A DNA stretch of 64,000 nucleotides from Candidatus Poribacteria bacterium (lineage in GTDB: Bacteria; Poribacteria; WGA-4E; PCPOR2b), in contig OZ242326.1 of assembly GCA_965208325.1 (NCBI GenBank), forward strand, positions 2,847,363-2,911,362, written 5' to 3'. The notes under the pieces are model-generated. The model was not told where the DNA came from. It worked only from the letters and a program-made list of their open reading frames with translations, and did no database searches. A program made the position numbers and the translations under genes. Positions 18,309 to 46,894 of this stretch are shown here, one piece after another. Within the stretch, counting starts at the first letter, position 1, and the number at the start of each line of letters is the position of its first letter.

Positions 18309-18439
18309 AAATCCCTAAGCGCCCTCACTCAATAACAAACAACAACCTTTTGGATAACAGCAGACCCATACAGGACCTACAAAGCAACCCACATCCGGAT
18401 TTAATTGAACACATTGTCAAAAATGCATGCGTCCCGGCA

Positions 18440-19078: not shown

Positions 19079-19140
19079 TTTGTTTCTCCACCCTTCCCCA
19101 AAACGCTAAACACATTATTTCAAACGGAACCCTCTCGACA

Positions 19141-19752: not shown

Positions 19753-19857
19753 TATCCTGTAGACCTGTAGAAATCAAGATTCATGTTCGCTTACTCCTGC
19801 CGACCAAGTTCGTTTTTTGCGGTCAGTCACATTTCGAGAACTACACTTCTGTATCGC

Positions 19858-20442: not shown

Positions 20443-20753
20443 TTTTGCATCCTCCTTAGCATTATTTTATTGCGCTCTAGGGTCAAGCGCAGAAAATCAT
20501 TCAAAAGACCGTAGGAGCGATCTCCGAATCGCGACTCTTTACTCACCCAAATCACCGTACGATAACTGGTGGGCGAGACTTCCACCAATCCAACCGCTGT
20601 GACTTCAGCGGGGATTGGTACAGACATCTGGCGGCAAACGGCGACTGCCTCGCTAATCTGCCGATCCGATAAACTGGAAGCAACTGTGCAGTGCGGAACC
20701 CAGTTCCCAACGATTGAATTTCAGCATGGATGATTTTCAGTATCGAAAATCGA

Positions 20754-21365
20754 TTAGAAGATGATTCGAAAGAAAGCCATGTCAAATGCGAAATATACCC
20801 CAATCACACCTATACTCAAATAAACCGCGCAGGAAATCATATTCCTAGGCACGGACGAAATTCGGAAATACTCATTCATCTCACGGACTACCTCTCTGAG
20901 CACAGATTTGTGCGCCCGCTGTTTGACCCTTATTATCCCGGTTCCCATCCACGAATGAGCAGACACTTGCAGGTCGGCTTCAATAGACGTCAGGCGTATT
21001 GCGGCAAGACTCTCTTCGTAAGGCAACTGTAGTTTTTGAAGAGCGGCTGTCACTCCATCGCGAAACGATGTATCTGTCACGGCGTACGCCGTGTAACCCC
21101 TGTAATGAAACCATCCCCGCAACAGAAGAAGCCCAAGTATAAGCGGGATCGCCCAATTAATAGCATACAAACTGGCGGGTAAGAGCATTGAGAAATTCAG
21201 CAGTATTATTGGAACAAAAACAACGAACAAAATTGACAGCCACCATCTATTCGAGACCAAGAAAGGCCGCTTGATCAGAACGCCCCGAACCCCAATCGTC
21301 AAGAAAAAGACTGCCATAATTCCAAACATAATTGGAAAAATTAGGTCGTAAATATCAGGGTTCAT
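20754..21365 (-). CDS. Paralogous 4-TM membrane protein of unknown function (copy 3)
   Basis: Same architecture and motifs (GVRGVLIKRPFLVSNRWW; AVTDTSFRDGVTAALQKLQLPYEESL). Confidence 0.5.
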   Translation of the reverse strand: MNPDIYDLIFPIMFGIMAVFFLTIGVRGVLIKRPFLVSNRWWLSILFVVFVPIILLNFSMLLPASLYAINWAIPLILGLLLLRGWFHYRGYTAYAVTDTSFRDGVTAALQKLQLPYEESLAAIRLTSIEADLQVSAHSWMGTGIIRVKQRAHKSVLREVVREMNEYFRISSVPRNMISCAVYLSIGVIGVYFAFDMAFFRIIF

Positions 21366-22534: not shown

Positions 22535-25500
22535 CTAAAAATCCAAACTCACCCCCATCATGACCAAGCGCGGTGAACTCCACGACAGCGGACTCGAATG
22601 CTTCCTATTGTTGAGCGGGATACCGTACCGGTCGTATGTAACCGGGTCTATCAGGTCGTCCAAATTTCTCGTGTTGAAGACGTTCCGAATATCCGCAAAG
22701 ACGGTATACGTCATCCCCGAGAGCACCATCCGCTTGCTAAGAAGTACGTCAACATTGTACGTCGGCGGGTACCGCTTCGAGTTCACGGCAGGCTTAATCG
22801 GCGCGGCAGGATTCGGCGTGTAGGGCAAGCCGCTGGCGTACCTGCCAATCATATTCGCCGAAGTATTAAACGGCAATTGAATCCCCAATGTTCCGGAAAC
22901 GATGTGGCGCTGATCCCAGTCTAAAGGGTGGCTTTCAGTCACTTCAGGCTGCTGCCGATAAAAGGTCAGGTAGCCCAGATTTCGACTCGAGCCCTTCCCC
23001 TTCGCAACGGAATACGTATAGCTGAACATCCCGGACACCCGGCTCTGACCCGTGCCCCACTTGCGAAGCGAAAACTCAAACCCTTGAACCCGTCCGTAGA
23101 TATCATTGATGAAATAACTGTAATCGTTGGTAATATCGACATGCAGGCTGCTCACAAGGTCGTTGATATTTTTTGTGAAACCGGTCAGGTCAACGGTTAA
23201 GTCGTCCGTGAGTTGCTGTGCCACGCCAACCTCGTACGCGATAGTCTTCTCCGGTTCGAGGTCGGGATTCCCCTTTCTCCGAATGGCGCCCCGCATATCA
23301 AAGTAAAGATTCTCGTAGAGATCATCGCCCCGCGGAATCTGATAATAATGTCCGTACGTAAAGTGCAACTTCGCCCGATCTGTAATCGGAAACGACATGC
23401 CGAGGCGCGGTGCAAGCGACCGCTTGACCGAAGGCTTAACCGGATCTTTGATGATGGGCAACCCGACCCTGTACACACTTTTGTCCAACTTGAATGTACC
23501 ATCCTCGTTAAGTTCGAGCGGATTCAGCGGGTCTTTAGGAATGTCGCCCTCAGGATTATACTGCTCATACCGCAAACCCGCATTGACAATCATCCCCGCA
23601 TACTCCATCTTGTCTTGCAAATACAAGCTAACACTGCCGGGCGTCACGTCATAATACTCCAAGTAGAGGTTTGAACTCCCATGATTTGTCGCTCCGAGAT
23701 AATATAGGTTCTGTGTTGAGAATTCAGCACCCGTCTGGATTTGGTGATGTGTCGTAACTTGGCTGGCAAAATCCGCTTTAACGATAGACGTCGTCGAATT
23801 GCGGTCAACCCAACTATTGTCATCGCCGGCAATGAAATAGTTTGTATCGTTGTACGCCTGCTGGGTCGGATTCCTGATTCGCCCCTCGTCCTGATTCTGC
23901 TCGAAGGTTTTTTCCGGATCCCAAGCGTTCTCCTCAAACGATTTATCCAACGGATCCCACAATTTGTCCGGTTGATGGCTCTCAAAGGAACGATGAAACT
24001 GTCCAACCGTCAGGGTGTAGAACGTGCCCGAGTTGAGATTATGTGAAAGCTGCACCGATATGCTCCGCCCATCCCGGTTCGCCACCGGAATCGCGCTGGG
24101 TAGAAAGCGCAGCGAACCGCCGTACGAGTTGGATTCTCGCTCATCCATCAACCCGCTCGCCGTCAGTTTGATGTCGGGTGTCATCTCAAACTTAAGTTTA
24201 CCCTGAAAAGTGTATCCCCTTGCGTCATTGTTAGGTAGATAGCTTTCATCCCGCCGCAACTGGCTGGCGGCGGAGAATGTCAACCGATTGCCCCATATCG
24301 GTCCGCTGAGCGCGAATTCACCTATATGCATCGGGCTAAGCTCATAATTCTTCGTGTCGTTGAATAACCCGCTGTACTGCTCCAAATCCACAACATAGTT
24401 GTCAAACAGCGTAACCTGTTTTTTCTCATAGTCAATAACCGTGCCGTCGGCGTCCTGATATGGTTGGCGCGCCGTAATGGTCTCCCCCGTATCCGGGTTT
24501 ACCTTGGGTTCACCCGATTCCGGATCGATAACCGGAAGAAGCGGATTCTTCGTCATGTCCGCATACACACCCGGGACAATCTCCGCGAATTCTACCCTGT
24601 CATCGCCCTCACGCGCTGCCAACTCCCCAACTGTAACCGTTTCACCGCGGTAGGGCGTCTGATAATCGTAAGGCTTGCCGAGAAAGATTCCCCTGAAAGG
24701 TTCAAGCGCGACAGGCCGGAAACCGTTGTCAGGATCCAGCCAAGGACCGTATAACGGGTCGCCGTGGTGCTCCGCCCACTTTCCAACGCGATACCGGATG
24801 CGTCCAGAAAATTTTTGCGTCCCGGCTTTCGTGATGAGATTAATTACGCCGGATTGCGCATCACCGTGTTCCGCATTGAAACCGCCCGTGATGACCTCCA
24901 TCTGTTCAATCGAATTCGCGTCGACACTCACACCCAAGCCCCTGAAAATCGGGTCATTAATCGGGATGCCGTCGATCAGGTATTTGACCTCCATTGAGCG
25001 TCCCCCGCGAATATGGAGCGTACCGGTCGCATTATCTACCGCGACGCCAGCCTGCGTTTGCAAAATCCCGTTCACGGTGTCACGCGGCATGGCAGCAATC
25101 TCGTCTGCTTCAATAATCCTTGTACTTTGTGTAACATCCCGCTTAATCAGCGGTTTGGTTGCCGTCACCTCTATCTCTTCCAGCGTGATAACCTCGGCCG
25201 CCTCCAACGCAAAGTTTAAGGTTGTAGTGAGTCCGGCGTAAACCTTCGCCCCCATTACAGTCTCTGAAGCGTAACCTGTGAGTTCGGCTTTTACATCATT
25301 ACTCCCCGGCGGGATGTTTGTCATGACATAATAGCCATCGTCATTCGTTGCCGCAGTGCTGCTTGTCCCGACAATTGTTACGGTAGCGTTCGTCAGCGGT
25401 GCCCTGGTCGCTTCATCGGTAATTACACCCGAAATCTTGCCGGTGATGGCGGCGTAGACGCTGCGGTTGCCTACCTCAAAACTCAGCACTGCTGCGCATG

Positions 25501-25573
25501 TCAAAAGTATCCAGAAAAAAACGCGTCTATTTTTCATTGATACCTCTCCTGAAATCAAGCATTGTGGATTCAA
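22535..25573 (-). CDS. TonB-dependent outer-membrane receptor with an N-terminal carboxypeptidase-regulatory-like domain
   Basis: Signal peptide; a CarbopepD_reg-like segment (ISGVITDEATRAPLTNATVTIVGTS...DGYYVM); a plug domain (IIEADEIAAMPRD...GGRSMEVKYLIDGIPIND); a long beta-barrel; a C-terminal aromatic residue (..SLDF). Confidence 0.85.
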   Translation of the reverse strand: MNPQCLISGEVSMKNRRVFFWILLTCAAVLSFEVGNRSVYAAITGKISGVITDEATRAPLTNATVTIVGTSSTAATNDDGYYVMTNIPPGSNDVKAELTGYASETVMGAKVYAGLTTTLNFALEAAEVITLEEIEVTATKPLIKRDVTQSTRIIEADEIAAMPRDTVNGILQTQAGVAVDNATGTLHIRGGRSMEVKYLIDGIPINDPIFRGLGVSVDANSIEQMEVITGGFNAEHGDAQSGVINLITKAGTQKFSGRIRYRVGKWAEHHGDPLYGPWLDPDNGFRPVALEPFRGIFLGKPYDYQTPYRGETVTVGELAAREGDDRVEFAEIVPGVYADMTKNPLLPVIDPESGEPKVNPDTGETITARQPYQDADGTVIDYEKKQVTLFDNYVVDLEQYSGLFNDTKNYELSPMHIGEFALSGPIWGNRLTFSAASQLRRDESYLPNNDARGYTFQGKLKFEMTPDIKLTASGLMDERESNSYGGSLRFLPSAIPVANRDGRSISVQLSHNLNSGTFYTLTVGQFHRSFESHQPDKLWDPLDKSFEENAWDPEKTFEQNQDEGRIRNPTQQAYNDTNYFIAGDDNSWVDRNSTTSIVKADFASQVTTHHQIQTGAEFSTQNLYYLGATNHGSSNLYLEYYDVTPGSVSLYLQDKMEYAGMIVNAGLRYEQYNPEGDIPKDPLNPLELNEDGTFKLDKSVYRVGLPIIKDPVKPSVKRSLAPRLGMSFPITDRAKLHFTYGHYYQIPRGDDLYENLYFDMRGAIRRKGNPDLEPEKTIAYEVGVAQQLTDDLTVDLTGFTKNINDLVSSLHVDITNDYSYFINDIYGRVQGFEFSLRKWGTGQSRVSGMFSYTYSVAKGKGSSRNLGYLTFYRQQPEVTESHPLDWDQRHIVSGTLGIQLPFNTSANMIGRYASGLPYTPNPAAPIKPAVNSKRYPPTYNVDVLLSKRMVLSGMTYTVFADIRNVFNTRNLDDLIDPVTYDRYGIPLNNRKHSSPLSWSSPRLVMMGVSLDF

Positions 25574-25854
25574 AGTTCGTTTCGGTTATGTCCTTTTATT
25601 CAGAAATTCAGAATACTCGCCAAATGAATTCTTCACTATCCTTAACACCGGTAATTCTTCGACGCTGCAACTCGCGCCCCAACATGGATTTCGCCGCATG
25701 CCTCGGACCACGCCGCCCATACTTTGCACCATTGGTCAGTTTCATCTGAAATTTTAACACATTTAAACAAGTTTCGGTAGGTGCGGTTTCCATCCACACC
25801 TGCGGATTGGAAAAATTTTTGCCGGTTCGACTATCACTTGAATTATCGATTCAA

Positions 25855-26400
25855 CTACTCCGCACGCCTCATAAGGACAAACGTACCGGTGGGCGCAGTA
25901 GAACTCAGCGTCAGCGCATCGCCCGATAAACTCCACGTGGCTTCCGTAATGGAAATTGGGCTTTGCTCCTCTCCGTAATTTAGCGTATCCCAGACATCCT
26001 TAGGTTCGAGGGTAACCTTTTCTTCCGCCGCAACGAACGACAACTGTGAACCCGATTGCGTATATTTCCCGTTTGTGGAAAAAGTTTGCTTCAGCGTGAC
26101 AGGAACACCTTCACTTTTAATGACGGCCGACTCAAATCCAAGAATTAGACTATACGAACCGTCAACGGCAAACAAAACCTCATTCTCGGCAATCTTGGTA
26201 TCAATTCCTTGAACTTGCCCTTGTACGCCGAAAGCAAACGACAAGGCGAAGGTAAGCAAGTTGGCTACTGCGCTAATGGGTTGGCCATCAATCGATACAA
26301 TCTCCCACGATCCAATCAAGGATGGCTCGTCTTCGTCACTGCTGCCGCAACCCATTACAACCAATAATATTACCATAATCACGGAAGAATTCCGCATCAT
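25855..26400 (-). CDS. Lipocalin-like lipoprotein
   Basis: Lipobox VVMGCGSSDED, then LIGSWEIVSIDGQ (a GxW lipocalin-like motif). Confidence 0.4.
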   Translation of the reverse strand: MMRNSSVIMVILLVVMGCGSSDEDEPSLIGSWEIVSIDGQPISAVANLLTFALSFAFGVQGQVQGIDTKIAENEVLFAVDGSYSLILGFESAVIKSEGVPVTLKQTFSTNGKYTQSGSQLSFVAAEEKVTLEPKDVWDTLNYGEEQSPISITEATWSLSGDALTLSSTAPTGTFVLMRRAE

Positions 26401-26613
26401 CTTTTCGATTCCCCCATACTAGCAATTAGACCAATCTGGCAAGTTGCCAACCCCGGTATTTTTGTTGTTTTTTGGTTTCAACCCTACCTTAATATTTGTA
26501 TGAAAACGACTGTGGGAGGGGTTTCCCTGCCCCGGTTATCCAGACAAAGATGCCCCTCCTACATTCAAACCATACAACCACTCTAACGGCCCATTTAGGC
26601 AACTCGCCGCGAA

Positions 26614-28167
26614 TCAACGGGTTTCTTTTCGAAGCCCCATCCACACGCAAACAGCCATACCCAATAGAACTATGGCGAACGGAAAGCCGGTCGCGAGCGA
26701 CGCCGCCTGCAACGACTGCAGTCCGCCGCCAAGCAGCAGCGCGATGGCAACCAATCCTTCAATCGTGCACCAGAAAACACGTTGCGGTACCGGTGCGTCA
26801 ATTTTTCCGCCCGCGGCAATGGTGTCAATGATTAGCGAGCCGGAATCCGACGACGTAACGAAAAAGATAATCGTCAAAAGCATGGCGACGGAAGAAAGCA
26901 GCAACGTCCACGGCAGTTCATCGAACATCTTAAACAGCGCGATTTCCAACTTCCACGCCTCAACATTCTCCGTCACACCGGTATAGCCGTCAACGATATG
27001 CTGGTGTAACGCCGTGCCGCCAAAAGCGCCAAACCACAGCAAACATAACAGCGTCGGCAGAAGTAACACAAAAATTACGAACTGCCGTACCGTCCGCCCC
27101 TTTGAAATGCGCGCAATGAATGTGCCCACGAACGGTGCCCACGCTATCCACCACGCCCAGTAGAACGTGGTCCAGCCGTGAAAAAAGCCGGTGTCCTCGC
27201 GTCCAATCCAGTTGCTGAGCGGCACAATCTTAGCGGCGTAGTCAACCAGCCCATTGAACATACTGCGGAAAATGTAGAGCGTAGGACCGAGAATGATAAC
27301 AGCCAACAGCAATAAGAACGCAAGAATTATGTTGAATTGGCTGAGTCGCTTGATACCGACATTAATTCCCGTTATCACCGATGTCAGCGCGACAGCCGTA
27401 ATGACAACAATTAACACCACCATCGTGGTATTGCTTTCGGGAACGTCAAATAGGTAATTCATGCCGGATGTGACCTGTTTAACTCCCAAACCGAGAGATG
27501 TTGCCAGCCCAAACAAGCCCGCGAAGATGGCGAAGGTATCAATGACATGGCCAGGCCAACCCCAGACGCGGTCGCCGAGCAGGGGATGAAACACCGAGCG
27601 GATCGTGAGAGGAAGGCCCCGGTTGTAAGCAAAGTATCCGAGCGCAAGTCCGACAACCCCGTAAACCGCCCAACCTTGAATCCCCCAGTGAAAGACTGTC
27701 GCCGATATGCCCGTGACTGCAGCTCCCGGCGACCCGGCGTCAATTCCGAGCGGCGGATTCTTCAGGTAATACATCGGCTCCGCCACGCCGAAAAACAATA
27801 ATCCAATCCCTACGCCTGCCGCGAAGAGCATGGCTGTCCACGTCAAATTGGAGTATTCCGGTTCCGCATCCGCGCCCCCGAGACGCACCTTGCCGAGCGG
27901 CGAGAACGCCACAACCAAACAGAACAGCGTGACAAGATTGACTGTAATCATAAACAACCAATCAAGGTTCGTCGTAAGCCAAACACGCACATCTCCAAAC
28001 AGTTTCGTCGCGCTTTCCTGAAACACGAGCGCCCCGACGACAAAGATGAGGATGGCGATTGCGGAAATTACGAAGACCGGAGTCAAATAGATATCTAAAC
28101 CGAATACCTTTCGGTACTCTCTGTCTTGCGGCAATTGAGTTTGATTTCCTTCTTCGTGCATTTTCAA
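26614..28167 (-). CDS. BCCT-family (betaine/carnitine/choline) transporter
   Basis: The BCCT signature WTTFYWAWWIAWAPFVG plus 12 predicted TM segments. Confidence 0.9.
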   Translation of the reverse strand: MKMHEEGNQTQLPQDREYRKVFGLDIYLTPVFVISAIAILIFVVGALVFQESATKLFGDVRVWLTTNLDWLFMITVNLVTLFCLVVAFSPLGKVRLGGADAEPEYSNLTWTAMLFAAGVGIGLLFFGVAEPMYYLKNPPLGIDAGSPGAAVTGISATVFHWGIQGWAVYGVVGLALGYFAYNRGLPLTIRSVFHPLLGDRVWGWPGHVIDTFAIFAGLFGLATSLGLGVKQVTSGMNYLFDVPESNTTMVVLIVVITAVALTSVITGINVGIKRLSQFNIILAFLLLLAVIILGPTLYIFRSMFNGLVDYAAKIVPLSNWIGREDTGFFHGWTTFYWAWWIAWAPFVGTFIARISKGRTVRQFVIFVLLLPTLLCLLWFGAFGGTALHQHIVDGYTGVTENVEAWKLEIALFKMFDELPWTLLLSSVAMLLTIIFFVTSSDSGSLIIDTIAAGGKIDAPVPQRVFWCTIEGLVAIALLLGGGLQSLQAASLATGFPFAIVLLGMAVCVWMGLRKETR

Positions 28168-28221
28168 ATATTCTCCTTTCGGTTGGACAGACGCAGCAGT
28201 CCGTTATTGAAAGCGTAGCGC

Positions 28222-29565
28222 TTAGAAGTAGTAACCCAAGTTAAAGTTAATCCGCCAATTCCATGCGTCATTTCCGTTGGCGCCATAGTCGCCGGCACCT
28301 GTATAAATGTTGGCGTAGTCCTCGACCTTTCCGTCGGCGTCGACATTCCCGACAAATCCGTTGCCGTTGGAAAGTGCCAAATCACTATAGACGTACAAGG
28401 CGCCAAACAATGTCCAGCTAGCGCCAAGTGTCACCAAGGTGCTGTTGTTAAAGTTATCCACCGTTTTAAGGATAGTACTTGCTTCAAGATATGGTGTAAC
28501 ACTGTCCATCCAAGAGATTCCGGACGCATCAATACCGTTGTAGCGCAGATTCAGCGCAGGAATCAATCCCTTGGACGCTATGGGCCACGCAAAATCGTAA
28601 GCCCCCATGGGGATTAAGTCGCCAGTGCCCCACGGCGTCTCATCAGTAATGTTGTATGCATAATAGGAAAATTGAGAGTAGACCGTGAAATCCGAGAACG
28701 TGTTCTTCATGTGCGCGGAAAGCGCATAGTGATTCGCGCCGTCATCATCCACGTCCGTTCCTTTCAACAACCCGTACTGAACCGACGCGCCGACATCCGC
28801 AATATTCTCAAGTGTATAAATGCCGCGCAGGTTGAATTGGTGCTGCTCATCAAATCCGTTCTCGCCCGCGCCCCAATCGACGTTCCCGTCCGCATCGGCT
28901 TTTTCCGCCCACGTCACGATGTCGTAACTGTACCGCGAACTCGCGACGCTGCTGCCCTCCGTTTGAGGTTCGCTCTGAAGAAAGTAGCCTACATCAAGCG
29001 CCATCTTGCCCATGGTGTCGCTCCATCTGATTCCCACATCCATGTCGTCGGCAAGCCCGACATAAAAATGTTGATCGAAGAACCAACTGCTTGAGACACC
29101 ATAAGCAGTAGGCCCAAAGGGAACCCGTACGACGCCCGCTTTCACTGTGCCCAACTCGCCGAGGTTATACCCAAGCCAAGCGGTGTGTATCATACTGTAC
29201 GTGTCGTACCATCGGTATTCCAGTCTACTAATCACATTGTTATAATCCAGATCGGCATTCAGGCGGAAAATCTCAAGGTCGGCATCTCCGATGTTTTCGC
29301 TTCGGCGGTGCGGATTGTCCTCGTCGCCGTAGGTGCCGTAGGCATATCCCACCCGCATAGCGCCGCCAATCTTAATCGGGCTTTTTTTGTCCTCGGCAAC
29401 CGCAACCCATTGTGAGGCGAACAACAATACTACGAGGGCAAGGTTAAAAGTCCCGTTGTATCCCCATTTTTTCACAGCATTTATCCTTTCTAAATTTTGC
29501 AACGGCAGATTAGTAACTGCCCTGCCAATGTCTATCCGATCCGAAAATTCGCGAAGCCGTATCAT
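28222..29565 (-). CDS. Putative outer-membrane beta-barrel porin; the likely start is a GTG near 29475 (VKKWGYNGTFNLALVVLLFASQWVAVA signal peptide)
   Basis: Signal-peptide-like segment, alternating amphipathic beta-strand pattern, and a C-terminal ..NLGYYF ending in Phe. Confidence 0.5.
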   Translation of the reverse strand: MIRLREFSDRIDIGRAVTNLPLQNLERINAVKKWGYNGTFNLALVVLLFASQWVAVAEDKKSPIKIGGAMRVGYAYGTYGDEDNPHRRSENIGDADLEIFRLNADLDYNNVISRLEYRWYDTYSMIHTAWLGYNLGELGTVKAGVVRVPFGPTAYGVSSSWFFDQHFYVGLADDMDVGIRWSDTMGKMALDVGYFLQSEPQTEGSSVASSRYSYDIVTWAEKADADGNVDWGAGENGFDEQHQFNLRGIYTLENIADVGASVQYGLLKGTDVDDDGANHYALSAHMKNTFSDFTVYSQFSYYAYNITDETPWGTGDLIPMGAYDFAWPIASKGLIPALNLRYNGIDASGISWMDSVTPYLEASTILKTVDNFNNSTLVTLGASWTLFGALYVYSDLALSNGNGFVGNVDADGKVEDYANIYTGAGDYGANGNDAWNWRINFNLGYYF

Positions 29566-29730
29566 TTAGATGCCAATCGGTTTCGTGAATTGTCGGATAC
29601 GAGAACACTCACTTCCAGAGTATATCTCTAGGCGAGCCGTAATCGTCGAATACTAAACCCATAATAAACCTTATACACATTAAAGTCAACTGCAATAACG
29701 TAAATTACCACACATTTCCGAAGGCCAGGC

Positions 29731-30830
29731 CTCTCGTAGAATCCATCTCCGAATCACGGCAAACCACCTGTGGGAGCGGCTTCCAGCCGCGATATAGCTC
29801 TTGTAGGTTGGGTAGAGCGGATTCACCCATAAACCACCCATTTAAACGATCCACACCGTCAACCTAACCTCGCACAAAATTCTATGATTCGAGCGAAACC
29901 CAACGCTTTTGAAACCTCTGGCATTTCAATCGACTCGCAAACACCATCATCCCCCCTAATTCCAAACTAAACTCACTCGGTCAATCTTACAAAAACGTCT
30001 GAACTGTGATTTTTATGATAAAATGATGGGCTATGAGTTAAAGAACTCATCTCTCTGTAGGAGCGATCTCCGAATCGCGGCCACCACCTGTGGAAGCGGA
30101 TTCCAGCCGCGATATAGCTCTTGTAGGTTGGGTAGAGCGGATTCACCCATAAACCGCCCATTTAAACGATCCACACCGTCAACCTAACCTCGCACAAAAT
30201 TCTATGATTCGAGCGAAACCCAACGCTTTTGAAACCTCTGGCATTTCAATCGACTCGCAAACACCATCATCCCCCCTAATTCCAAACTAAACTCACTCGG
30301 TCAATCTAACAAAAACGACTGAACTGTGGTTTTTATGGTAAAATGATGGGCTATGAGTTAAAGAACTCATCTCTCTGTAGGAGCGATCTCCGAATCGCGG
30401 CACACCACCTGTGGAAGCGGATTCCAGCCGCGATATAGCTCTTGTAGGTTGGGTAGAGCGGATTCACCCATAAACCGCCCATTTAAACGATCCACACCGT
30501 CAACCTAATCTCGCACAAAATTCTATGATTCGAGCGAAACCCAACGCTTTTGAAACCTCTGGCATTTCAATCGACTCGCAAACACCATCATCCCCCCTAA
30601 TTCCAAACTAAACTCACTCGGTCAATCTTACAAAAACGTCTGAACTGTGATTTTTATGATAAAATGATGGGCTATGAGTTAAAGAACTCATCTCTCTGTA
30701 GGAGCGATCTCCGAATCGCGACAAACCACCTGTGGGAGCGGCTTCCAGCCGCGATATAGTCGTAGGCACACTCCGGTTTGTAAAGTTTTTGTAGGTTGGG
30801 TTGAGTCGGGATTCACCTAATGATGTACTA
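29731..30830. repeat. Tandem array of a 320-bp repeat (about 3.4 units). Each unit contains the TGTAGGTTGGGTAGAGCGG motif shared with the MITE-like family.
   Basis: Units start at about 29733, 30055, 30375 and 30695 with over 95 percent identity; no ORF spans the array. Confidence 0.9.
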
Positions 30831-32411
30831 TTTTACGTTTCGTTCTGGAAGCCTAACGACGTACAAAATACGAGGCGCAGAGAACCCGAAGACTATTGCA
30901 CTCACTATTCGTTCGCTTGATGGTTGGGTTCGCTGCCTCTTAACAAATTTCAAACACCTTCAAATACCAATATCCAGCCTACCTTTTCCAGACTTTCATT
31001 TAACCCGCTTAACCCAACCTACAAAAAAAAACAGGAACCTTCATGGCGTCGAGCGACGAATATCAACAGTACGAAATTCAAACCCACAAATTTCAGCCAA
31101 AATTACAGTTTTTACAGTCCATAAAAAAAGGGGGTAATTTTTGCGGCGTATGTTGTCCGAAATAAATTAAAACGCTCCTGTTAGGCTGGGTTGCGGGGAA
31201 GTAGATTTGGGATTTTTGATTTGCTTTTTTTGTGAGTATTTGGGACATGCGAAAATTAGCGAAAATGGGCGTGAGGCGAGACAGGGAGCGGGTTTGGGGC
31301 GTTGAGTATTTTTGAGTATTTGAAAAAATAAGTTGAGAATGCTCAATTTTGAAACCGCGGACGAGTTGATTGATTCAGCCATCATAGTTTGTGTAGGTTG
31401 GGTAGAGCGGATGATTCCAAAACGGTATTGGTAGCAATCAACCGTTACGAATTTCTAACAATGCTGTTGTCAACACACGCAGAGCGAAACCCAACCGGCA
31501 AATACTACTACAAACTGAACTGACTAATTCCTATTTAAATTGTTTACAGAGATGCTACCTTCACTGTTTAGTTCGTGTTTGGGAAATGAATTGTGCGTTC
31601 TTAGGGCGGCATTACCGAAAAAAATCAACTTCTCTGGGGAAATGCGTTATATTAAATCATCGCGGAAACCGTGTCAACACGCAAACCTTGCTCAGAATAA
31701 CATCTATACTGCATAGATCTCGGTTGAATTCGGTTGTTAAGAGGACGTGCGGGGACAGCCGTTTCAGCCGAAAGAGCGCGTCATACGCTTTACCTGTAGT
31801 GGTCAAGAGGATAGTTTGCGGACGGTGCCGCTTGCATCGGAAAATCCTCCCCCTTGCTAAGGAGGAGTTAGAGGGTTCAGATGCGTTGCACCCCCGCTAG
31901 GTGCCGTCAGTGTCAACCTTCTCATGGACCAATACAGTTATTCACGGTAACAGGGATTCGCCTGAGAAAATCGTTGTACAGATACATCCCGTTATGGTTA
32001 AATTTAATGACTGATTCTGTGAAAAATTCATAGTTTTCATAGTTTTCCGACGCAACACAACCATTTGATGGCGGTGAACAATGGGCGTAAATTCAGTCTA
32101 GCACTAATCTTCGCGTGGTTGATGCTAGATTTGGCTAAGAAGTTTACTATGAAACTTTAGTGTTTTTCAGGTGGAGGAATGCGATAGGGGTTAACAAAAG
32201 CGGGGAATCGGAGGCGTGCCTTTATGTCGTACAAGGTGAGGAGTGGGCGGCGGACGGAGGCAATAATAGGCAATCATGGGCGTAAATCTTAGCCGATGCT
32301 CATCCCTGGCGTATCCGGACGACTAGCGGGTTTGAGAATGTTCGCCGCCGTGAATTTTTCAAGGGTTTAATCTGTAACATAAAAAAGGAGGGTAATGCCG
32401 TGTTTAACAGG

Positions 32412-32790
32412 TCGTGTAGGTTGGGTTGAGCGAGCAACCGACTGAACAGGTAGCGCGATAGTTCTAACCTTCAGTGAAAATTAACATGACGGAGCGTAAA
32501 CCAACGTTTTTCGTATTTCCGAACCGCTTCCAATAAACTAAACGCCCCGCAATATCCAAACACAGTCTGAACTGTGACTCGTATGATTAAATGATGGGCT
32601 ATGATTGAGGGAGCACATTATCATTCGGTGTTCGCAGAGAAGGTGGGTTGACATCAATCAACCGGATAATTTCTTGTAGGTTGGGTTGAGCGGTGTTGAG
32701 AAACCGACGCATGTTTGCCGCGGGCGTTGCGTGTTTTGATTGTGTTCAAAATTCGAATCAATGAAGCGTAACCCAACGTTTTTTGCATGC
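32412..32790. repeat. Two further degenerate MITE-like copies (32412-32630 and 32674-32790) in the non-coding region
   Basis: gtgtaggttgggttgagcg...ggagcgtaaaccaacgttttt ; ttgtaggttgggttgagcggtgttgag...aagcgtaacccaacgtttttt. Confidence 0.6.
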
Positions 32791-33296
32791 GAAGTGTATC
32801 GCTAACTGGTGGTGCTTGAAGCAAAAAAACTGGAGATCGCTATTGCACTCGCTCTTCGCTCATTTGGCGGTTACGTTACGTTCAGCGTGATTTACGAATC
32901 AAGTCGTACAGAAATCGGTATGGATCTTGGCATAGGTCTGGAATTGAAAACGCCAGACGAAAGAAAAGTAGTGGGATTGGCCACGGGCTAAACCGAACCT
33001 ATAAGCACTGACACGCCAATAATATTTTACAGGGCAGCATTTTTCAGGGTTTGGAAATGGAAGCGATCCAAGGAGAATATCCAATGACACGTACCAAGGC
33101 GATTGACAGAGTTAAACTTCCGGCAAATAGTGGCAGCGTGAATAGGAGGGACTCAGTTAAATCAATTCTCGACACGCCAGAGGTTGTAACGAAGGAAGTG
33201 TTTGAATCTAAATTAGATAGGAACAAAAAGAAAAGCGAGAACTCCAGCAAGAAGAAGTGAGTAGCAAAGAGACCAAGATAAGTTACCCCCATAACT

Positions 33297-33471
33297 TACC
33301 CCCATCCTTTAGACAGAAAATAAGGGGATTTAAGTAATAAAGTCCGACTAATTCTGGTCAATTTTCAACGCCTGAAGTTAGTGAAAATACACCTCGTATG
33401 GTGTACGGTATTCGAGCGATTGATGTGACCGCTCTCGCTTGTAAAAATTGAAATAATCTCTCAACCGGCGC
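33297..33471 (-). mobile_element. IS3-family right-end remnant (copy 2, truncated)
   Basis: About 90 percent identical to 2962-3140 (terminal sequence plus the last roughly 25 codons of the transposase). Confidence 0.6.
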
Positions 33472-33578
33472 CAAAGATTAGTCCGACAATTGCTATAAGA
33501 ATCAGCCAACCTAACATCGTGATTCTCCTTATGTAAGGATTATGGGGGAGGGGGTAGCCGCCCCCTGTGGAGAAGAAG

Positions 33579-36441: not shown

Positions 36442-39195
36442 TTACTTCACTATTGCCATGCGACGTAGTGATTGATAATCGCCCGATCGCAATTGGTAGA
36501 AATACACGCCGCTTGGCACAGTTTCACCGGACTGGTTTCTGCCGTCCCAATGCGCGGCTTGTGTCTGATTGGCGTAGAAGCCCGCGTCCCGATGCCCCAA
36601 ATCGAGTTGCCGCACTAGATTGCCCTGGACGTCATAAATCGTCAGCGTTACTTTGCCCGCGCGGGAGAGGTGGTACGGAATCCAGGTCTCCGGATTGAAC
36701 GGGTTGGGGTAGTTTGGCAAGAGCGCGGTCTCTTTCGGCGTCAAGGCTGCGAGGAGGTGTTTCAGCGTGAGAACGCCGCGCTGGTATTGCGCTGTGTTTT
36801 TGCCCGTCAGCTTGGCTTCGGTTAGCCAGTGTTCGACCATCACCGGGGACAGGTCTGTAGGCAACTGGACGCGGGCTGCCGGTGCAGCCGGTACGCTGTC
36901 TACCGCAGCGGCGACGGCGATAACGTCGTCGATGTCGACAACCCCATCCCCGTTGACGTCCGCCGATTCTTTGCCTGTCCGCCCGTAGTGCACTGCGACG
37001 TAAACAATGTCTAGACGATCCACGCTTCCGTCGCCGTTGGCGTCCGCGATAATGGGTGGAGGCTGAGTTTCGGCAACGGCGTGAAAGGTGATTTTCTCCA
37101 ACAATCCAACGGCGGATGCCTCGACAGAGTTTTTTCCCGGATTTTGCCCCAACGTCAGGGTAGTCTCCGCTTGCCCGCCGCTATCGGTCATTGCGCTTGT
37201 TGCACTGAGCTTGCCGCCGCCCACAGTGACTGTGAAAACAATTGGAACCCCTTCAATCGGGACGTGTTTCTCGTCCAGCACTGCCACGACGAACGGGTTT
37301 TCAAGCGCTTCGCCGGCGTACGCCCGTTGATCGCTCCCCGATTGGATGCGAATCCGCGGCGGTGGTCGGCTGTCAAAACCTACCTCAACTCTTCTTTCCT
37401 GTAAGGCAGGGATGTGTAGGTAAATTGAGGCGTAACTCAAGGGGTTTCCCTGCAGATGAACCTCGTCCCCATTACCCAATCCCGTATTGGCTACCAGCGG
37501 TGAAATGTCCGAGATGTTGTTGCGCGAAAGGTCCAGGATTGTAAGGTCGGTCAACCACGATATTGCCTTGATGTCCGAGATGTTGTTTTCCCAAAGATTC
37601 AACCGTCTCAGGTTGGTTGCCGCTTCGAGCCCAGTTAAATTGCTGATGTTTGCGTTAGCGGCGTCAAGCATATCATCAAGCGCCGCCATTTCCGCCGGGG
37701 CAATGGGTTCACCGGCTGTTTTGTTGAGGGCATTCTCAACCGCGGCACGGAGGTTCGGGTCGGGTATATGGATCGGAAGCCCCGCCATGGCGTTGAATGT
37801 GACCGTCTGCCCAATTCCAGCGGCGGACACCTCTACCGTGTTTTGTCCGATATTCGCGCCCAGTGTCAACACGCTCGCTGCACGGCCGCCCCGATCTGCG
37901 TGGGCGGACTCCACACTGAGCCTGCCGCCGCCGACGGCGACAGAGAATCTAACGGCAACCCCCTCAATCGGATTGCCGTTGTGCACATCTCGGACTTCAA
38001 CGACAAACGGGACGAGTAACGGTGTATCCGGCAAGCCGTGTTGGTTGTCTCCTGAGACTTTCGTTAACGGCTCTAATTTTTCCGAAAACAACGTAAAGTC
38101 TCTCCACGACACATTGCCATCCGTATCAATGGCTTCAATGGTAATCGGATGGGTAGTCGGATTAAAAAGGTTCGTGTTTCTGCTGTAAGGTAGGGAATGT
38201 GCATGGGGAATAACGCCGTCGTAATCAAAGGCAGCAGTTTCCTCTTGGTTTCCCCCCAACCCAAAACACGCCTTGACCGAACTGCCGTTGGGACTATCGG
38301 GTTGATTAACGTGTAAGATTACCTGGTGAAGTCCGTCAAAATCATGGAGGCGGGGACTGACAATGATATTACTTGCGAATGCTGAATATGAACGGGGCGA
38401 AATGAGTTCTATGGTGGGCGGCTCCCCCGCTTCAATTGGGGTGCTCTGATTGAAGTAGGTATGAACCGACAAATACACCGCATGGCATTGAGATAACCGC
38501 TTCTCATCCCGGGAACTAGGGCCATACGACATTACGTAGGCACCATCTCGGAAATCGTGGTAAAGTCCAAAGGCGTGTCCCAATTCGTGTGCGATTAGCC
38601 ACCAATCAAATGCACGCAAGCAAAACGCGAATCCGCCGCGTTTTGAATATGCGCGGCCTTGACCGCCATCAATATACGCCGTCTCAAGTGTGCCCGGTCG
38701 GTCGATGAAAACGAGATAAACGTTCTCATAAAGATTGAACGCTTCTTCAATCTCGCCAATTACAACAGGCGTACTGCCAAAGCCTTGTGGATAATGGCTG
38801 TCCGGGTATCTCCCGCCGACCTGATTCACTATCGGTTCACCGTAAGCGTCCGTTTCAACCCGGAAGGTTTGCCGTCCGTAGCCGTGCGCTTGCATCTGAT
38901 CGGCAAAAAAGCTTTGTGCGATGCTAAGCTGTTCCTTAATTCGTTTCACCACTTGTTCCCGATACGGGCGGTCATTGGGTAAAAAGTAAATTATGCGCAC
39001 GGTGCGTGTTGTTCCGACATTCAGAGCAAGGGTTTTGGAGCGGGCATCTGGGTGCGTGCCGCGCTTATGGTACTGATGTCCGGTAAACCCGCAGTAATGA
39101 GCTGCCGATTTAGGCGGGGCGGCAAGCGCGGCGGTTAGGTTAACAAGGCACAAAAGCACCGTGCAAAGCGATAACCGAAAAAATCGGATTTTCAC
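36442..39195 (-). CDS. Secreted multidomain metzincin-type zinc metalloprotease with Ig-like, leucine-rich-repeat and dockerin-like modules and a T9SS C-terminal sorting domain
   Basis: Signal peptide; HELGHAFGLYHD (HExxHxxGxxHD) motif; LRR segment (LRRLNLWENNISDI...LDLSRNNISDISPL); dockerin-like DANGDGSVD/DVNGDGVVD; C-terminal LLPNYPNPFNPETWIPY...YFYQLR...MAIVK. Confidence 0.8.
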   Translation of the reverse strand: MKIRFFRLSLCTVLLCLVNLTAALAAPPKSAAHYCGFTGHQYHKRGTHPDARSKTLALNVGTTRTVRIIYFLPNDRPYREQVVKRIKEQLSIAQSFFADQMQAHGYGRQTFRVETDAYGEPIVNQVGGRYPDSHYPQGFGSTPVVIGEIEEAFNLYENVYLVFIDRPGTLETAYIDGGQGRAYSKRGGFAFCLRAFDWWLIAHELGHAFGLYHDFRDGAYVMSYGPSSRDEKRLSQCHAVYLSVHTYFNQSTPIEAGEPPTIELISPRSYSAFASNIIVSPRLHDFDGLHQVILHVNQPDSPNGSSVKACFGLGGNQEETAAFDYDGVIPHAHSLPYSRNTNLFNPTTHPITIEAIDTDGNVSWRDFTLFSEKLEPLTKVSGDNQHGLPDTPLLVPFVVEVRDVHNGNPIEGVAVRFSVAVGGGRLSVESAHADRGGRAASVLTLGANIGQNTVEVSAAGIGQTVTFNAMAGLPIHIPDPNLRAAVENALNKTAGEPIAPAEMAALDDMLDAANANISNLTGLEAATNLRRLNLWENNISDIKAISWLTDLTILDLSRNNISDISPLVANTGLGNGDEVHLQGNPLSYASIYLHIPALQERRVEVGFDSRPPPRIRIQSGSDQRAYAGEALENPFVVAVLDEKHVPIEGVPIVFTVTVGGGKLSATSAMTDSGGQAETTLTLGQNPGKNSVEASAVGLLEKITFHAVAETQPPPIIADANGDGSVDRLDIVYVAVHYGRTGKESADVNGDGVVDIDDVIAVAAAVDSVPAAPAARVQLPTDLSPVMVEHWLTEAKLTGKNTAQYQRGVLTLKHLLAALTPKETALLPNYPNPFNPETWIPYHLSRAGKVTLTIYDVQGNLVRQLDLGHRDAGFYANQTQAAHWDGRNQSGETVPSGVYFYQLRSGDYQSLRRMAIVK

Positions 39196-39329: not shown

Positions 39330-42254
39330 TTATTTCACGATTACCATCCGCCGGAGCGCGTTATAATCGTCCGTTCGGAGTTGATAGAAATAGGCGCCGC
39401 TAGCGACGGCTTCGCCGTTTTCGTTCCTGCCGTCCCAATAGGCAGCGCGGGTTTTCTCGATATACACGCCCGCCCGTTGATGACCTAAATCCAACTGTCG
39501 AATTAGGGCGCCGTTTAAGTCGTAAATCGAGATTTGGACGTCCGAACCCGTCGCTAACCGGTAAGGTATCCAGGTCTCCGGATTAAACGGATTTGGATAG
39601 TTTGGCAGAAGTGCGGTCTCTTTCGGCGCCAAGACTGCGAGGAGTTGCTCCAACGTGAGAATGCCGCGCTGGTATTGCGGCGTGTTTTTGCCGGCCAGCT
39701 TGGCTTCGGTTAACCAGTTTTCGACCATTTCCGCGGTCAGGTCTCTAGGCATCGCCGCACGGGCTGCCGGCGCAGCGGCTACGCTGTCTACCGCGGCGGC
39801 GACCGCGATAATGTCGTCGATGTTCACAACGCCGTCGCCGTTGATGTCCGCTGCACCTTGGCTTGTCTGTCCGTAGTGCAATGCGACATAGACAATGTCT
39901 TGGACATCTACGCTGCCGTCACCGTTGGCGTCGGCGTCTTTGGCTTCGACGGTCTCATCTTCGGTTTCGTCATCCGGGTCTTTCGATTCGATCGGTTGCG
40001 GAGAGGCGTTAATGGCAATGGAGGACGGGCGATCCATGCCGCTTGCGATAACATCTTCAACGTTGGATGCGTCCAAATTGGCACGCCGGACTGTTTCATC
40101 ACGCCAATCTGTCCAATATATTTTTCGATTGTCGATATCTAAGTCTAAGCTGTGCACCCCCGCTAATTCTGTAACGACGTCTTCGACATTTGAACCATCC
40201 AAGTCGGCACGCTGGATTTTTCTCGCGGCAGCATCTGTCCAGTACATTTTCCCGTCTGCAACATCTAGGGCAATGCTGGTTGGCGCCTGCAATCCTGTGA
40301 CGAGGTCTTCGACATTTGTGCCATCCAAGTCGGCGCGCTGGATTTTATTCGTGCCGTCATCTGTCCAGTACATCTGACCGCCATCAACATCTAACGCCAA
40401 ACCGCTTGGAATGCGCAAACCGCGTGTCAGGAGGTCTTCAACGTTTGAACCGTCTAAGTCGGCACGTTGGATTTTATCGGTGCCGTTATCTGTCCAATAC
40501 ATCTTACCGGCCGCAACATCTAGGGCAATGTCTTTCGTCCCTTTCAATCCTTGTGTCACAAGGTCTTGGACGTTTGCGCCGTTCAAGTCGGCGCGTTGAA
40601 TTTTATCCGTGCCGGAATCTGTCCAGTACATGTGTCCGCCGGTAACATCTAGGGTTAAACCGCTTGGTTGTTGCAGACCGCGCTGAACTAGGGTTTCGAT
40701 GCGTGAAGCGTCGGAGCTGGCTGCGCGGATGCTCATTGTGCCGCGGTCGATCCAGTAAATGGCAAGCGGCTTCTGTTCACGGACGGCGGCGACGGGAACG
40801 TTTGCGGTGAGCGAACTGCCGCTGTAGCTTGCGATGCCGCCGGCGCGCACACTGAACGACAACGTCGCATTTGTGTCAAAGTCGGTGCCGTCAAAAGCGA
40901 GTACAATCGTAATCTGCGTGTCACTTTCGCGCCGAACCCTATTAACAGTAACACCTGCAATCCCGGAAACCATCACGGCGTTACTGATGCGGGACAAAGA
41001 CTGTTCCCATGCACCGTTCCTCAATGTGAGCGCCACATCGCTTCCGTCTAACACCGTCTCTGTTAAGGGCGCCGAAGTTGAGGCGTGTAGCGTCGGTTCC
41101 TTTTTCGCCTCCACTGTAATACGCACGCTCGCAGAACAGTTGTTAGTTTTGTCACTCTCGTTTGCAACACTATCGACGCATGCGCCGAAATAGTAGGTTC
41201 CGGCAGATGTTGGGGCCGTAAGACTGATGCTCTCGGCACTCCTCCCATTAGCATTAAGCGCGCTAACACTGGCCGTGCCGACCGCTGTATCGCTAGTCGA
41301 AATCGTGGAATCGGCCGAGCGGTAGTAGCGCAGCGTGGTCGCGGCCGCACTGCTTGTGCCGCTATTTCTGACGGCGGTGGACAGCGTAAAATTTTCGCCG
41401 GCGGTTAAGTCGCTTTTACTGACTGTCGGACGGTCAACGATTAAGTCCGGCGAGTCCGATTGAACCTCCACCGTGATACGCACGCCGGCGGAGCAGTTGT
41501 TGTCAGAATTGCTCTCGTCCGCAACTGCGTCAACACAAGCGCCGTAGTAGTAGGTGCCGGCAGATGCAGGGGCGGTGAGACTGATACTCTCGGCACTCGT
41601 CCCATTTGCATTCAGCGCGTTAACGCTGTCCGTGCCGACTGCTGTATCGCTGGACGAAATCGTGGCATCGGTCGAGCGATAGTAGCGCAGCGTGGTGGCA
41701 GCGGCACTGCCAGTGCCGCTATTTCTGACGACCGTCGACAGCGTAAAGCTTTCGCCAGGCGTTAAGGTGTTTTTACTCACGGTTGGGTGGTCAACGACTA
41801 AATCCGATTGTTCAGATTCGGCACAGGTTGGCGCGTTGCTAAAACGTGTCACAACCCAAACTTCACCACTCTTTACAAAGCGGAACCAATTGAAATCAAC
41901 TTCTGTAGGTTCTGAAATAAGAACATTTGTTGCACCTGCGAGTTGTACAACACCGTATCCGTCACTTCTATGAGCAACCAAAAGTAGACTCTCGGCACCG
42001 CTGCTGTTCACAACAAGGTCTGCTGCAAAGGTGTCTCTCGGAAATTGAAGACCGACACAGATTTCCGGTGCACGGTCTATTAAGTCTCCTGCTAAAGCCG
42101 TGTCTCCGGCCTTAATTGCCGCTTGCAAATCGCTGTATTTTGAGCTTACAGGAACTTGACTCTGGCTGAAACCAACATCTGGCAACCCACACACCAACAC
42201 TATTACGATGAGAATTGACAAGGCAACTTTTCGACTTATGATAAACATGGCCAT
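39330..42254 (-). CDS. Secreted protein with two CARDB-like domains, a six-bladed YWTD beta-propeller, a dockerin-like module and a T9SS C-terminal sorting domain
   Basis: Six repeats of (M/I)YWTD..xxKIQRADLDGSNV; two near-identical roughly 100-aa CARDB-like repeats; C-terminal 200 aa about 75 percent identical to 36442-39195. Confidence 0.8.
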   Translation of the reverse strand: MAMFIISRKVALSILIVIVLVCGLPDVGFSQSQVPVSSKYSDLQAAIKAGDTALAGDLIDRAPEICVGLQFPRDTFAADLVVNSSGAESLLLVAHRSDGYGVVQLAGATNVLISEPTEVDFNWFRFVKSGEVWVVTRFSNAPTCAESEQSDLVVDHPTVSKNTLTPGESFTLSTVVRNSGTGSAAATTLRYYRSTDATISSSDTAVGTDSVNALNANGTSAESISLTAPASAGTYYYGACVDAVADESNSDNNCSAGVRITVEVQSDSPDLIVDRPTVSKSDLTAGENFTLSTAVRNSGTSSAAATTLRYYRSADSTISTSDTAVGTASVSALNANGRSAESISLTAPTSAGTYYFGACVDSVANESDKTNNCSASVRITVEAKKEPTLHASTSAPLTETVLDGSDVALTLRNGAWEQSLSRISNAVMVSGIAGVTVNRVRRESDTQITIVLAFDGTDFDTNATLSFSVRAGGIASYSGSSLTANVPVAAVREQKPLAIYWIDRGTMSIRAASSDASRIETLVQRGLQQPSGLTLDVTGGHMYWTDSGTDKIQRADLNGANVQDLVTQGLKGTKDIALDVAAGKMYWTDNGTDKIQRADLDGSNVEDLLTRGLRIPSGLALDVDGGQMYWTDDGTNKIQRADLDGTNVEDLVTGLQAPTSIALDVADGKMYWTDAAARKIQRADLDGSNVEDVVTELAGVHSLDLDIDNRKIYWTDWRDETVRRANLDASNVEDVIASGMDRPSSIAINASPQPIESKDPDDETEDETVEAKDADANGDGSVDVQDIVYVALHYGQTSQGAADINGDGVVNIDDIIAVAAAVDSVAAAPAARAAMPRDLTAEMVENWLTEAKLAGKNTPQYQRGILTLEQLLAVLAPKETALLPNYPNPFNPETWIPYRLATGSDVQISIYDLNGALIRQLDLGHQRAGVYIEKTRAAYWDGRNENGEAVASGAYFYQLRTDDYNALRRMVIVK

Positions 42255-46756: not shown

Positions 46757-46894
46757 GTGAGCAATGCGTAAAATCTAATGCGTAATGCGTAATGAGTAAT
46801 GCGTAATGCGTAATGAGTAATGAGTAATGAGTAATGAGTAATGCGTAAAATGTAATACGTAAAATGTAATGCATAGAGGGTAATGCGGTAAGCG
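46757..46894. repeat. Heptanucleotide tandem repeat (GTAATGM)n, about 18 units
   Basis: gcaatgc gtaaaat ctaatgc gtaatgc gtaatga gtaatgc gtaatgc gtaatga gtaatga gtaatga gtaatga gtaatgc gtaaaat gtaatac gtaaaat gtaatgc ... ; shorter arrays of the same unit at 54364-54398, 56288-56323, 57185-57234, 60252-60284 and 61938-61970. Confidence 0.9.

Follow-up and report, generated by a model that had tools for sequence, protein, structure and literature searches.

The tandem array in this Poribacteria genome is probably a recent, lineage-specific amplification of a mosaic of short, selfish interspersed repeats (REP-like hairpins and MITE fragments) that occur genome-wide, and it looks like an ordinary kind of bacterial repeat cluster, not a new gene, RNA or element. 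In the window, i.e., the whole 64,000-nucleotide stretch of DNA that was analysed, Tandem Repeats Finder (TRF) detected a single long-period array, at 29731-30759, with a period of 321, 3.2 copies, 96% matches, 0% indels and a score of 1925. Together with the alignment of the copies, this result upholds the 320-bp tandem array described in a sequence-only reading of the same DNA, as well as the identity of more than 95 percent claimed there for its copies: the global pairwise identity of the full units is 96.0% between units 1 and 2, 97.2% between units 1 and 3, and 98.1% between units 2 and 3. The period, which had been called perfect, is not, the three full units being 321, 320 and 321 nt long. 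The end at 30830 and the count of 3.4 copies given there were too large, as the array proper stops at 30759. Its fourth copy consists of only the first ~62 nt of a unit (30698-30759), corresponding exactly to the module called A below, and is followed by a 30-nt unrelated insert and then, from 30790, by a separate, diverged element of the type that we call B. The three full units are distinguished from one another by private substitutions and a 1-nt indel.

Four modules, A, B, C and D, make up the mosaic of each unit, and the array as a whole is arranged as a left-edge A followed by three copies of B-C-D-A (Table 1). The same doublet of REP hairpins, module A, opens and closes the array, and both boundaries coincide with it. 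Module A (~58 nt) consists of two REP-type hairpins in direct orientation: A1, with the structure GTAG-GA-[GCGAT]-CTCCGA-[ATCGC] and the tail GAC or GGC, and A2, with the structure GTGG-GA-[GCGGCT]-TCC-[AGCCGC] and the tail GAT. The tag is present in every copy (GTAG in A1, GTGG in A2). The stem variants are compensatory (GCGAT/ATCGC, GCGGCT/AGCCGC and GGGAA/TTCCC), and the loop CTCCGA is retained with both the GCGAT/ATCGC and the GGGAA/TTCCC stems. All of the motifs named in the earlier reading were found, e.g., TGTAGGTTGGGTAGAGCGG in every unit and GTAGGAGCGATCTCCGAATCGCG three times within the array. Of these, CACCTGTG comprises the spacer and the GTGG tag of the second REP, A2, and the CGCGG/CCGCG inverted pair is a predicted 8-bp helix joining the 3' ends of the two REP hairpins. 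A single further copy of GTAGGAGCGATCTCCGAATCGCG had been reported elsewhere in the window; it does occur once outside the array, at 20511-20533 and not at 20506.

Members of the GTAG superfamily of REPs are defined by a terminal GTAG or GTRG outside the stem, a stem of 5-13 bp, a loop of 2-20 nt, GW bases and a 3-nt tail (PMC3733652). Module A has the tag, the GW bases, a short stem-loop and the 3-nt tail, and it forms sub-families with complementary stems, so that on its sequence it can be classed as REP-like, of the GTAG-1-like type. The copies of A are not equivalent. The left-edge copy shows 7-8 differences from the inner copies within the first 45 nt, the two inner copies have GGAAGCGGATTCC variants in common that both edge copies lack, and the inner A2 variant (GGAAGCGGATTCC) also resembles a remnant of A2 in one of the relatives described below.

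Table 1 Features of the array and its surroundings (positions in the window).
Feature	Position	Strand	Detail
Solo A1 REP, exact copy	20511-20533	+	Intergenic, after the gene at 19858-20442
Promoter-like site of the 417-aa gene/BCCT operon	29661-29689	-	TTGACT-17-TATTAT; sequence conserved with relatives
Full units 1, 2 and 3	29736-30056, 30057-30376, 30377-30697		321, 320 and 321 nt; from sequence reading and copy alignment
Left-edge REP doublet A	29736-29793	+	Degenerate A1 GTAGAATCCATCTCCGAATCACG at 29736-29758; canonical A2 GTGGGAGCGGCTTCCAGCCGCGAT at 29770-29793
Module B, unit 1	29802-29910	+	
Module C, unit 1	29911-29996	+	Same segment at 30231-30316 and 30552-30637
Module D, unit 1	29997-30056	+	Left arm of palindromic element, GTCTGAACTGTGATTTTTATGATAAAATGATGGGCTATGA, plus ~20-nt tail
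REP doublet A, unit 2	30057-30113	+	A1 GTAG-GA-GCGAT-CTCCGA-ATCGC-GGC; A2 GTGGAAGCGGATTCCAGCCGCGAT
Modules B-C-D, unit 2	30122-30356	+	Four private substitutions clustered at 30308-30338
REP doublet A, unit 3	30377-30434	+	
Modules B-C-D, unit 3	30443-30697	+	
Terminal REP doublet A, array end	30698-30759	+	A1 at 30698-30720; A2 at 30732-30755
Separate B-type MITE	30790-31023	+	Inverted ends TGTAGGTTGGGTTGAGTCG ... CCGCTTAACCCAACCTACA, the second at 31005-31023
Dispersed repeat families E and F	E 31040-31158, F 31174-31387	+	Common to OZ242351.1 loci and syntenic relatives
Diverged B-C'-D copy	32415-32604	+	Only module cores conserved relative to the array unit

Module B is a ~110-nt element with the conserved ends TGTAGGTTGGGT...AACCCAAC, of which the 5' end carries the GTAG-tagged TGTAGGTTGGGTAGAGCGG (B5) and the 3' end carries GAGCGAAACCCAACGCTTTT. 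With up to three mismatches allowed, the window contains 17 copies of B5, distributed over both strands, against an expectation of 0.01; within the array, all A1, A2 and B5 motifs are on the + strand. Among 15 aligned B elements only a terminal stem of 7+2 bp is invariant, the ~75-nt interior varies by sub-family, and the alignment revealed neither covariation nor conserved structure in that interior. In nearby copies (30790/31005, 56328/56579 and 57240/57304), the ends of B (TGTAGGTTGGGTTGAGCGG) form terminal inverted repeats. The copy at 30790-31023 lies outside the array and is also found at the orthologous site of relatives that have no array. Module C is an ~86-nt lineage-specific spacer that had no match in the related loci searched. 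Module D comprises ~40 nt plus a 20-nt tail, and this tail also precedes A1 in other loci. Between units, the B-C-D parts show just 1-5 differences. Shared repeats make up almost all of window 29732-31387, the exceptions being the unit-specific C spacers and the B interiors. The ~45-nt segment that the unit had been said to share with a degenerate copy downstream is likewise real, and is located at 32565-32604. Of the three identities that had been offered for the array, i.e., a tandemly amplified MITE, a cluster of sRNA genes or an array of binding sites, the first comes closest, except that the amplified entity is a mosaic and its unit has no terminal inverted repeats.

The array is located in ~4.4 kb of DNA in which no credible genes were found, and upstream of a minus-strand series of genes, in which a conserved hypothetical gene precedes those for a BCCT transporter and a TonB-dependent receptor. 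The hypothetical protein has many homologues, and the few with a source name are labelled Candidatus Poribacteria; they are ~417 aa long, which places the real start of the gene near 29477. A promoter-like site precedes this operon, and its -35-like hexamer is ~40 nt downstream of the start of the array. The contigs that encode the closest homologues of the hypothetical protein, which range from 56 kb to 5.0 Mb and are apparently long-read assemblies (by name), were used as relatives. Over 7.2 kb, three of them (L130, L131 and L133) match window 22535-29696 with 90.5-91.6% identity; collinearity is lost at 29696, just upstream of the promoter-like site and 35 nt short of the array. At the orthologous site, all three have a different REP (GTAGGTCGGGCTTCCAGCCCGAC), in the position occupied by the left-edge A in the window, then one A1, and then the same B-type MITE and E/F repeats. 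A1 is followed by an A2 remnant in L133 and by a D arm in L130 and L131. The single A of these relatives is orthologous to the terminal A of the array, and their shared MITE and E/F part corresponds to window 30698-31356. Neither a B-C-D unit nor a tandem array is present at the orthologous site of L130, L131 and L133, and a stage with a single unit, A-BCD-A, was not found in the relatives. A fourth relative, L132 (84% identity), has ordinary genes upstream. Long-period TRF matches upstream in the relatives were considered as further mosaic arrays and rejected, as they represent a CRISPR array, the repeat of which is absent from the window. This comparison marks the site as a hot spot for the turnover of repeats and the array as specific to the lineage of the window.

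The sequence-only reading had proposed that a lack of copies elsewhere would favor a neutral local duplication. The individual modules have many copies elsewhere; the complete B-C-D-A unit has none in ~0.9 Mb of related sequence. Three 8-kb loci in OZ242351.1, a complete chromosome from a Candidatus Poribacteria MAG, contain many copies of A1, A2, B and D, including seven copies of A1 in 24 kb. The order of the modules elsewhere differs from that in the array, being B5-D-A1-A2 in locus L008 and A1-D in locus L022, where it is found twice, ~200 nt apart. A 140-nt D-A1-A2 composite recurs with 82-86% identity in L008 (5290-5153) and in L130/L133 (6591-6712 in L133), and the D-to-A junction was therefore pre-existing and not made by the duplication. 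A1 by itself was found in 106 stretches of metagenomes, frequently at the end of a contig. Of 125 A1 copies in the metagenome relatives, 80 are followed 16-17 nt downstream by a partner REP in inverted orientation, GTAG-GA-[GGGAA]-CTCCGA-[TTCCC]-GAC, which has the same tag and loop and fully compensatory stems, i.e., a REPIN arrangement. In the window and in OZ242351.1 the A1-A2 doublet is head-to-tail, not inverted, and no pair of inverted REPs forming one hairpin, as in a REPIN, was found in either. The 26-mer spanning the junction between the 3' end of B and C gave 0 matches in metagenome and viral contigs. In the viral contig scans this junction, B5 and D gave 0 matches each and A1 gave one match, and no plasmid match was found for the array unit. 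No transposase adjoins the repeats in L008 or L022 or lies between the inverted A1 copies in locus L026. A tblastn search for RAYT with an E. coli query against ~0.87 Mb of loci and the window, in which a single-copy gene is easily missed, returned only matches with E>0.4, to LysRS and IS3 genes.

The anatomy of the array suggests how it could have arisen. A B-C-D segment would have come to sit between two direct A doublets, and unequal homologous recombination or replication slippage between the flanking A copies would then have duplicated B-C-D-A in at least two rounds. We infer this mechanism from the array anatomy alone. The combination of a diverged left-edge A with near-identical B-C-D parts would fit an older resident REP flanking young duplicates, and the variants shared by the inner A copies would fit a stepwise expansion. 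Because the inner A2 variant is similar to what remains of A2 in L133, a simple hybrid-junction history is not provable, and dispersed copies may have undergone gene conversion. The array probably has no selected function. It may incidentally affect the promoter-like site ~40 nt away or the local structure of DNA or RNA.

Several known repeat systems resemble the array in part. In Salmonella and E. coli, recombination between direct REP copies leads to tandem chromosomal duplications with a REP at the join point. In the present array, too, the start, the joins and the end all lie in the same REP doublet, but those duplications involve kilobases of genes and are unstable, whereas the segment amplified here is 320 bp of non-coding repeats. 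The BIMEs of E. coli are extragenic mosaics of REPs and other short conserved motifs, with several REPs per cluster (see also PMC3733652). The array is likewise an extragenic mosaic of REPs and other short conserved motifs. However, REP orientation alternates (Y/Z) in BIMEs, whereas the hairpins of the array all point one way, and its units are approximately ten times longer; alternating REPs with conserved linkers were not found in it. Like MITEs, module B is short, non-coding and multi-copy and has ends that form terminal inverted repeats in neighboring copies, but the array unit itself lacks inverted ends, and neither a target-site duplication nor a matching transposase was seen. The array had also been judged too long in period to be a CRISPR array, and we concur: the period is 320 nt, whole units are near-identical, and direct repeats of 23-50 nt separated by unique spacers of like size are not present.

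The closest parallels are tandem REP clusters. Tandem repetition of REPs or REPINs along with their flanks has been described in Pseudomonas and other genomes, including GI-GIII arrays with a period of 184 bp and REPIN clusters of over 700 bp in Pseudomonas (PMC3116915, PMC3733652). As in the Pseudomonas clusters (Bertels & Rainey 2011; Di Nocera et al. 2013), near-identical units of REP plus flank are arranged head-to-tail in extragenic DNA, more than one REP type occurs at fixed spacings, and the REP anatomy matches the GTAG-1 type. With 3.2 copies, 96-98% identity and two or three REP-type hairpins per unit, the array has the properties of a tandem REP cluster. It differs from the Pseudomonas clusters in its host, which belongs to a phylum outside those surveys, in its longer period of 320 bp, and in the composition of its unit, to which the MITE-like B and one half of an unrelated palindromic element also belong. 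Together, the two REPs of the array form a head-to-tail heterodimer, an arrangement that is rare among published REP families.

We considered whether the array could instead be a protein-binding or architectural DNA array, similar to BIMEs that bind gyrase, IHF or Pol I, or could regulate the promoter-like site of the 417-aa/BCCT operon. REP clusters in E. coli bind such proteins (PMC3733652), each unit of the array provides two or three REP-type hairpins in one orientation, and the -35-like hexamer close to its start lies in conserved sequence. However, the relatives keep the promoter-like region and the operon without the array, and with different REPs there, indicating that the operon can do without the array. 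A binding motif was not found, and units that are 96-98% identical are too young for any selection to show. This role, which is drawn by analogy with E. coli, is therefore unlikely.

A cluster of small-RNA genes, one of the identities proposed earlier, is decidedly unlikely. Tandem sRNA arrays do occur in other bacteria, e.g., NsiR1 in Nostoc. In the present case, an extended -10-like TGnTAAAAT in D would drive an RNA of ~190 nt through the REP hairpins, ending in a T-run after B (GAGCGAAACCCAACGCTTTT). Several observations point in this direction: (i) D contains TGATAAAAT (TGGTAAAAT in unit 2), which by eye resembles an extended -10 element. (ii) B terminates in a short hairpin followed by TTTT. 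(iii) The strong conservation of D across phyla implies some constraint. However, a consensus scan for promoters and terminators found no such site inside the array on either strand. A search of Rfam 15 gave 0 matches at the gathering score over the 64 kb and 0 at E<=5 over 29500-33500, and no tRNA or tmRNA was found. The proposed transcript is no better folded than shuffled sequences (MFE z-score of -1.23), and whole units on the two strands gave z-scores of only -1.58 and -1.53. Moreover, the order from promoter to terminator is not conserved, the modules elsewhere being arranged as A1-D or B5-D-A1-A2, the array is missing from close relatives, and the interior of B, as noted above, has no conserved structure or covariation. 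Finally, D is part of a near-perfect hairpin in other phyla, so a promoter on one arm would read into its own hairpin. The earlier statement that the array contains no ORF holds in that none exceeds 62 aa; its ORFs are only 51-62 aa long, and two of them were looked up as proteins, neither of which is on record. A diversity-generating (DGR-like) pair of template and variable repeats was likewise rejected, as the substitutions are not adenine-specific and no reverse transcriptase was found in the few neighboring ORFs scanned.

Module D has a wider distribution than the other parts of the unit. A scan of a genome collection with 22 nt of D yielded 21 loci, three of them in OZ242351.1. Outside Poribacteria, D is the left arm of a near-perfect hairpin of ~80-150 nt and is found in MAGs labelled Parcubacteria/Patescibacteria, Ardenticatenaceae, Symbiothrix, Flavihumibacter, Balneolia, Calditrichaceae and Marinamargulisbacteria; in Poribacteria, only solo D arms were seen. 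The 42-nt arm, approximately half of which was fixed by the search pattern, matches with at least 88% identity along 39-42 nt in most of the loci fetched from about ten distant lineages, among them Patescibacteria, Chloroflexota, Bacteroidota, Margulisbacteria and Poribacteria, and the upstream GTCTGAACTRTGATT, which was not fixed, is conserved as well. The D loci have GC contents of 0.30-0.60, and in five of them just 16-26 nt align. Each arm contains four WATGATK repeats ~9-10 nt apart, and the element terminates in TGTC...GACA. Among the ORFs of the 21 loci, no protein family was common to the neighbors of D across phyla. D had no plasmid match, no meaningful phage match, no viral-contig match and no Rfam match, and its sequence string led to nothing relevant in the literature searched. 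One could imagine D as a portable promoter or protein-binding hairpin that seeds expanding units, each yielding a REP-structured RNA, such that the array would not be junk; we consider this very unlikely.

That the whole B-C-D-A unit is mobile, with three adjacent insertions by REP-targeting or REP-primed transposition and not recombination, is highly improbable. REPs are described as insertion targets for some IS elements (PMC8450116), and D-A1-A2 composites recur in other loci, but the complete unit occurs nowhere else in the searched data, its copies keep an exact 320/321-nt register, and it has neither terminal inverted repeats nor target-site duplications, the unit ends GTAGGAGCG... and ...CTCATCTCTCT not being inverted. 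Least probable of all is an assembly artefact, in which a single unit was wrongly expanded or a repeat was collapsed or mis-joined: repeats of this size can break or loop short-read assemblies, and an independent short-read contig (Logan SRR10996926), which equals window 28018-29792 with 5 mismatches, does end within the first REP doublet, but the units differ by private substitutions and a 1-nt indel, collinearity with the relatives holds on both flanks, and the contig matches across the left junction, which is thereby confirmed in another sample. The break of this contig inside the REP doublet is a typical effect of repeats on short-read assembly.

A recent tandem amplification of a repeat mosaic, as favored here, reveals no new mechanism. 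The only lead with a wider reach is module D, which is conserved across very distant phyla and GC contents. Such repeats have practical consequences, in that they break short-read assemblies and yield spurious small ORFs, e.g., MGGLWVNPLYPTYK. The array mainly provides a worked example: the genomes of these sponge-associated Poribacteria harbor several families of short interspersed repeats side by side, which form mosaics together and undergo local amplification. Repeat clusters of this kind create hot spots of rearrangement, and the site upstream of a conserved operon varies here even among relatives that are 91% identical. With the array, the known range of GTAG-1-like REPs and tandem REP clusters comes to include a candidate phylum outside the published surveys.

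Module D, the palindrome arm of the array unit, makes up one side of a near-perfect hairpin element of ~100 nt. Copies of D lie in the window and at loci L002-L022, which were recovered from a genome-collection scan with 22 nt of D. The element has the termini TGTC...GACA, with four WATGATK repeats per D arm, and is present in MAGs from about ten distant lineages, among them Patescibacteria/Parcubacteria, Ardenticatenaceae, Bacteroidota, Calditrichaceae, Margulisbacteria and Poribacteria. The 42-nt arm retains at least 88% identity over 39-42 nt in most of L002-L022, and the GC content of the loci sharing it ranges from 0.30 to 0.60. The element has no match in Rfam, plasmids or viral contigs, did not turn up in the literature when looked up by sequence, and has no protein partner that we could find at the D loci.

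In an Ardenticatenaceae MAG, D-type hairpins occur head-to-tail with ~112-nt spacing (L021 6302-6640; L013 3935-4090). Thus, tandem clustering of D is not confined to Poribacteria. Two tandem ~200-nt units on the minus strand of the Poribacteria chromosome OZ242351.1 (L022 2860-3220), each laid out as REP hairpin A1, D, a spacer and the hairpin AAACCGAGTTTTGAAGAAAAAACTCGGTTT, are a second case of locally duplicated mosaics. The terminal hairpin, which resembles a bidirectional terminator, is also found in the window at 46925-46958 and 51611-51644, after two paralogous 917/922-aa genes. Another dispersed repeat is a 176-nt direct duplicate with 93.8% identity (window 33297-33472 and 2962-3137, 30 kb apart).

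The closest syntenic relatives (L130, L131 and L133) carry a CRISPR array 3-9 kb upstream of their counterpart of the conserved 417-aa hypothetical gene. Some of its spacers are duplicated, and its repeat, GTTTCAATTCCACACTGGTTCGATTAAAAG, has zero copies in the window. One end of the L133 CRISPR array is flanked by a D-A1-A2 composite, in which A1 and A2 are REP hairpins, and a B-type MITE (6380-6720).

Coordinates of the features discussed.
Feature	Sequence	Coordinates	Strand
Module D copies	Window	29997-30036, 30317-30356, 30638-30677, 32565-32604	
CRISPR array	L130	500-6450	
CRISPR array	L131	3100-5750	
CRISPR array	L133	430-6370	
Large paralogous genes	Window	36442-39195, 39330-42254, 46963-49716, 51649-54417, 57874-60162	Minus
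REP/B-derived spurious ORFs	Window	29686-29841, 29973-30161, 30614-30769	Minus
Heptamer microsatellites	Window	46776-46887, 54364-54402, 56286-56324, 57187-57235, 60232-60284	

To the right of the array, 31400-32400 and 32800-33500 (~1.7 kb in total) contain no ORF larger than 104 aa. This sequence has G-rich runs and a GC skew of +0.11 to +0.19, compared with -0.15 to -0.2 in the array; it matches neither the relatives nor other loci, gives no Rfam hit at E<=5, and could be what is left of a gene or an RNA not yet described.

Elsewhere in the window, (GTAATGC/GTAATGA)n heptamer microsatellites immediately adjoin B-type elements, for example 57187-57235 leading into one at 57240 and 56286-56324 into a B 5' end at 56328; they appear to belong to the B repeat family or to be drawn to it. 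There are also several large paralogous genes; the only member scanned, at 36442-39195, carries Ig-like, LRR, dockerin and type IX secretion sorting domains. A ~200-aa gene that lacks Pfam domains is present as three paralogues in tandem (18408-21357). These gene sets fit the repeat-protein-rich genomes reported for Poribacteria.

Spurious ORFs derived from the REP hairpins and B reappear in every array unit (MGGLWVNPLYPTYKSYIAAG...), and such peptides are likely to be called hypothetical proteins by gene callers in Poribacteria genomes like this one.
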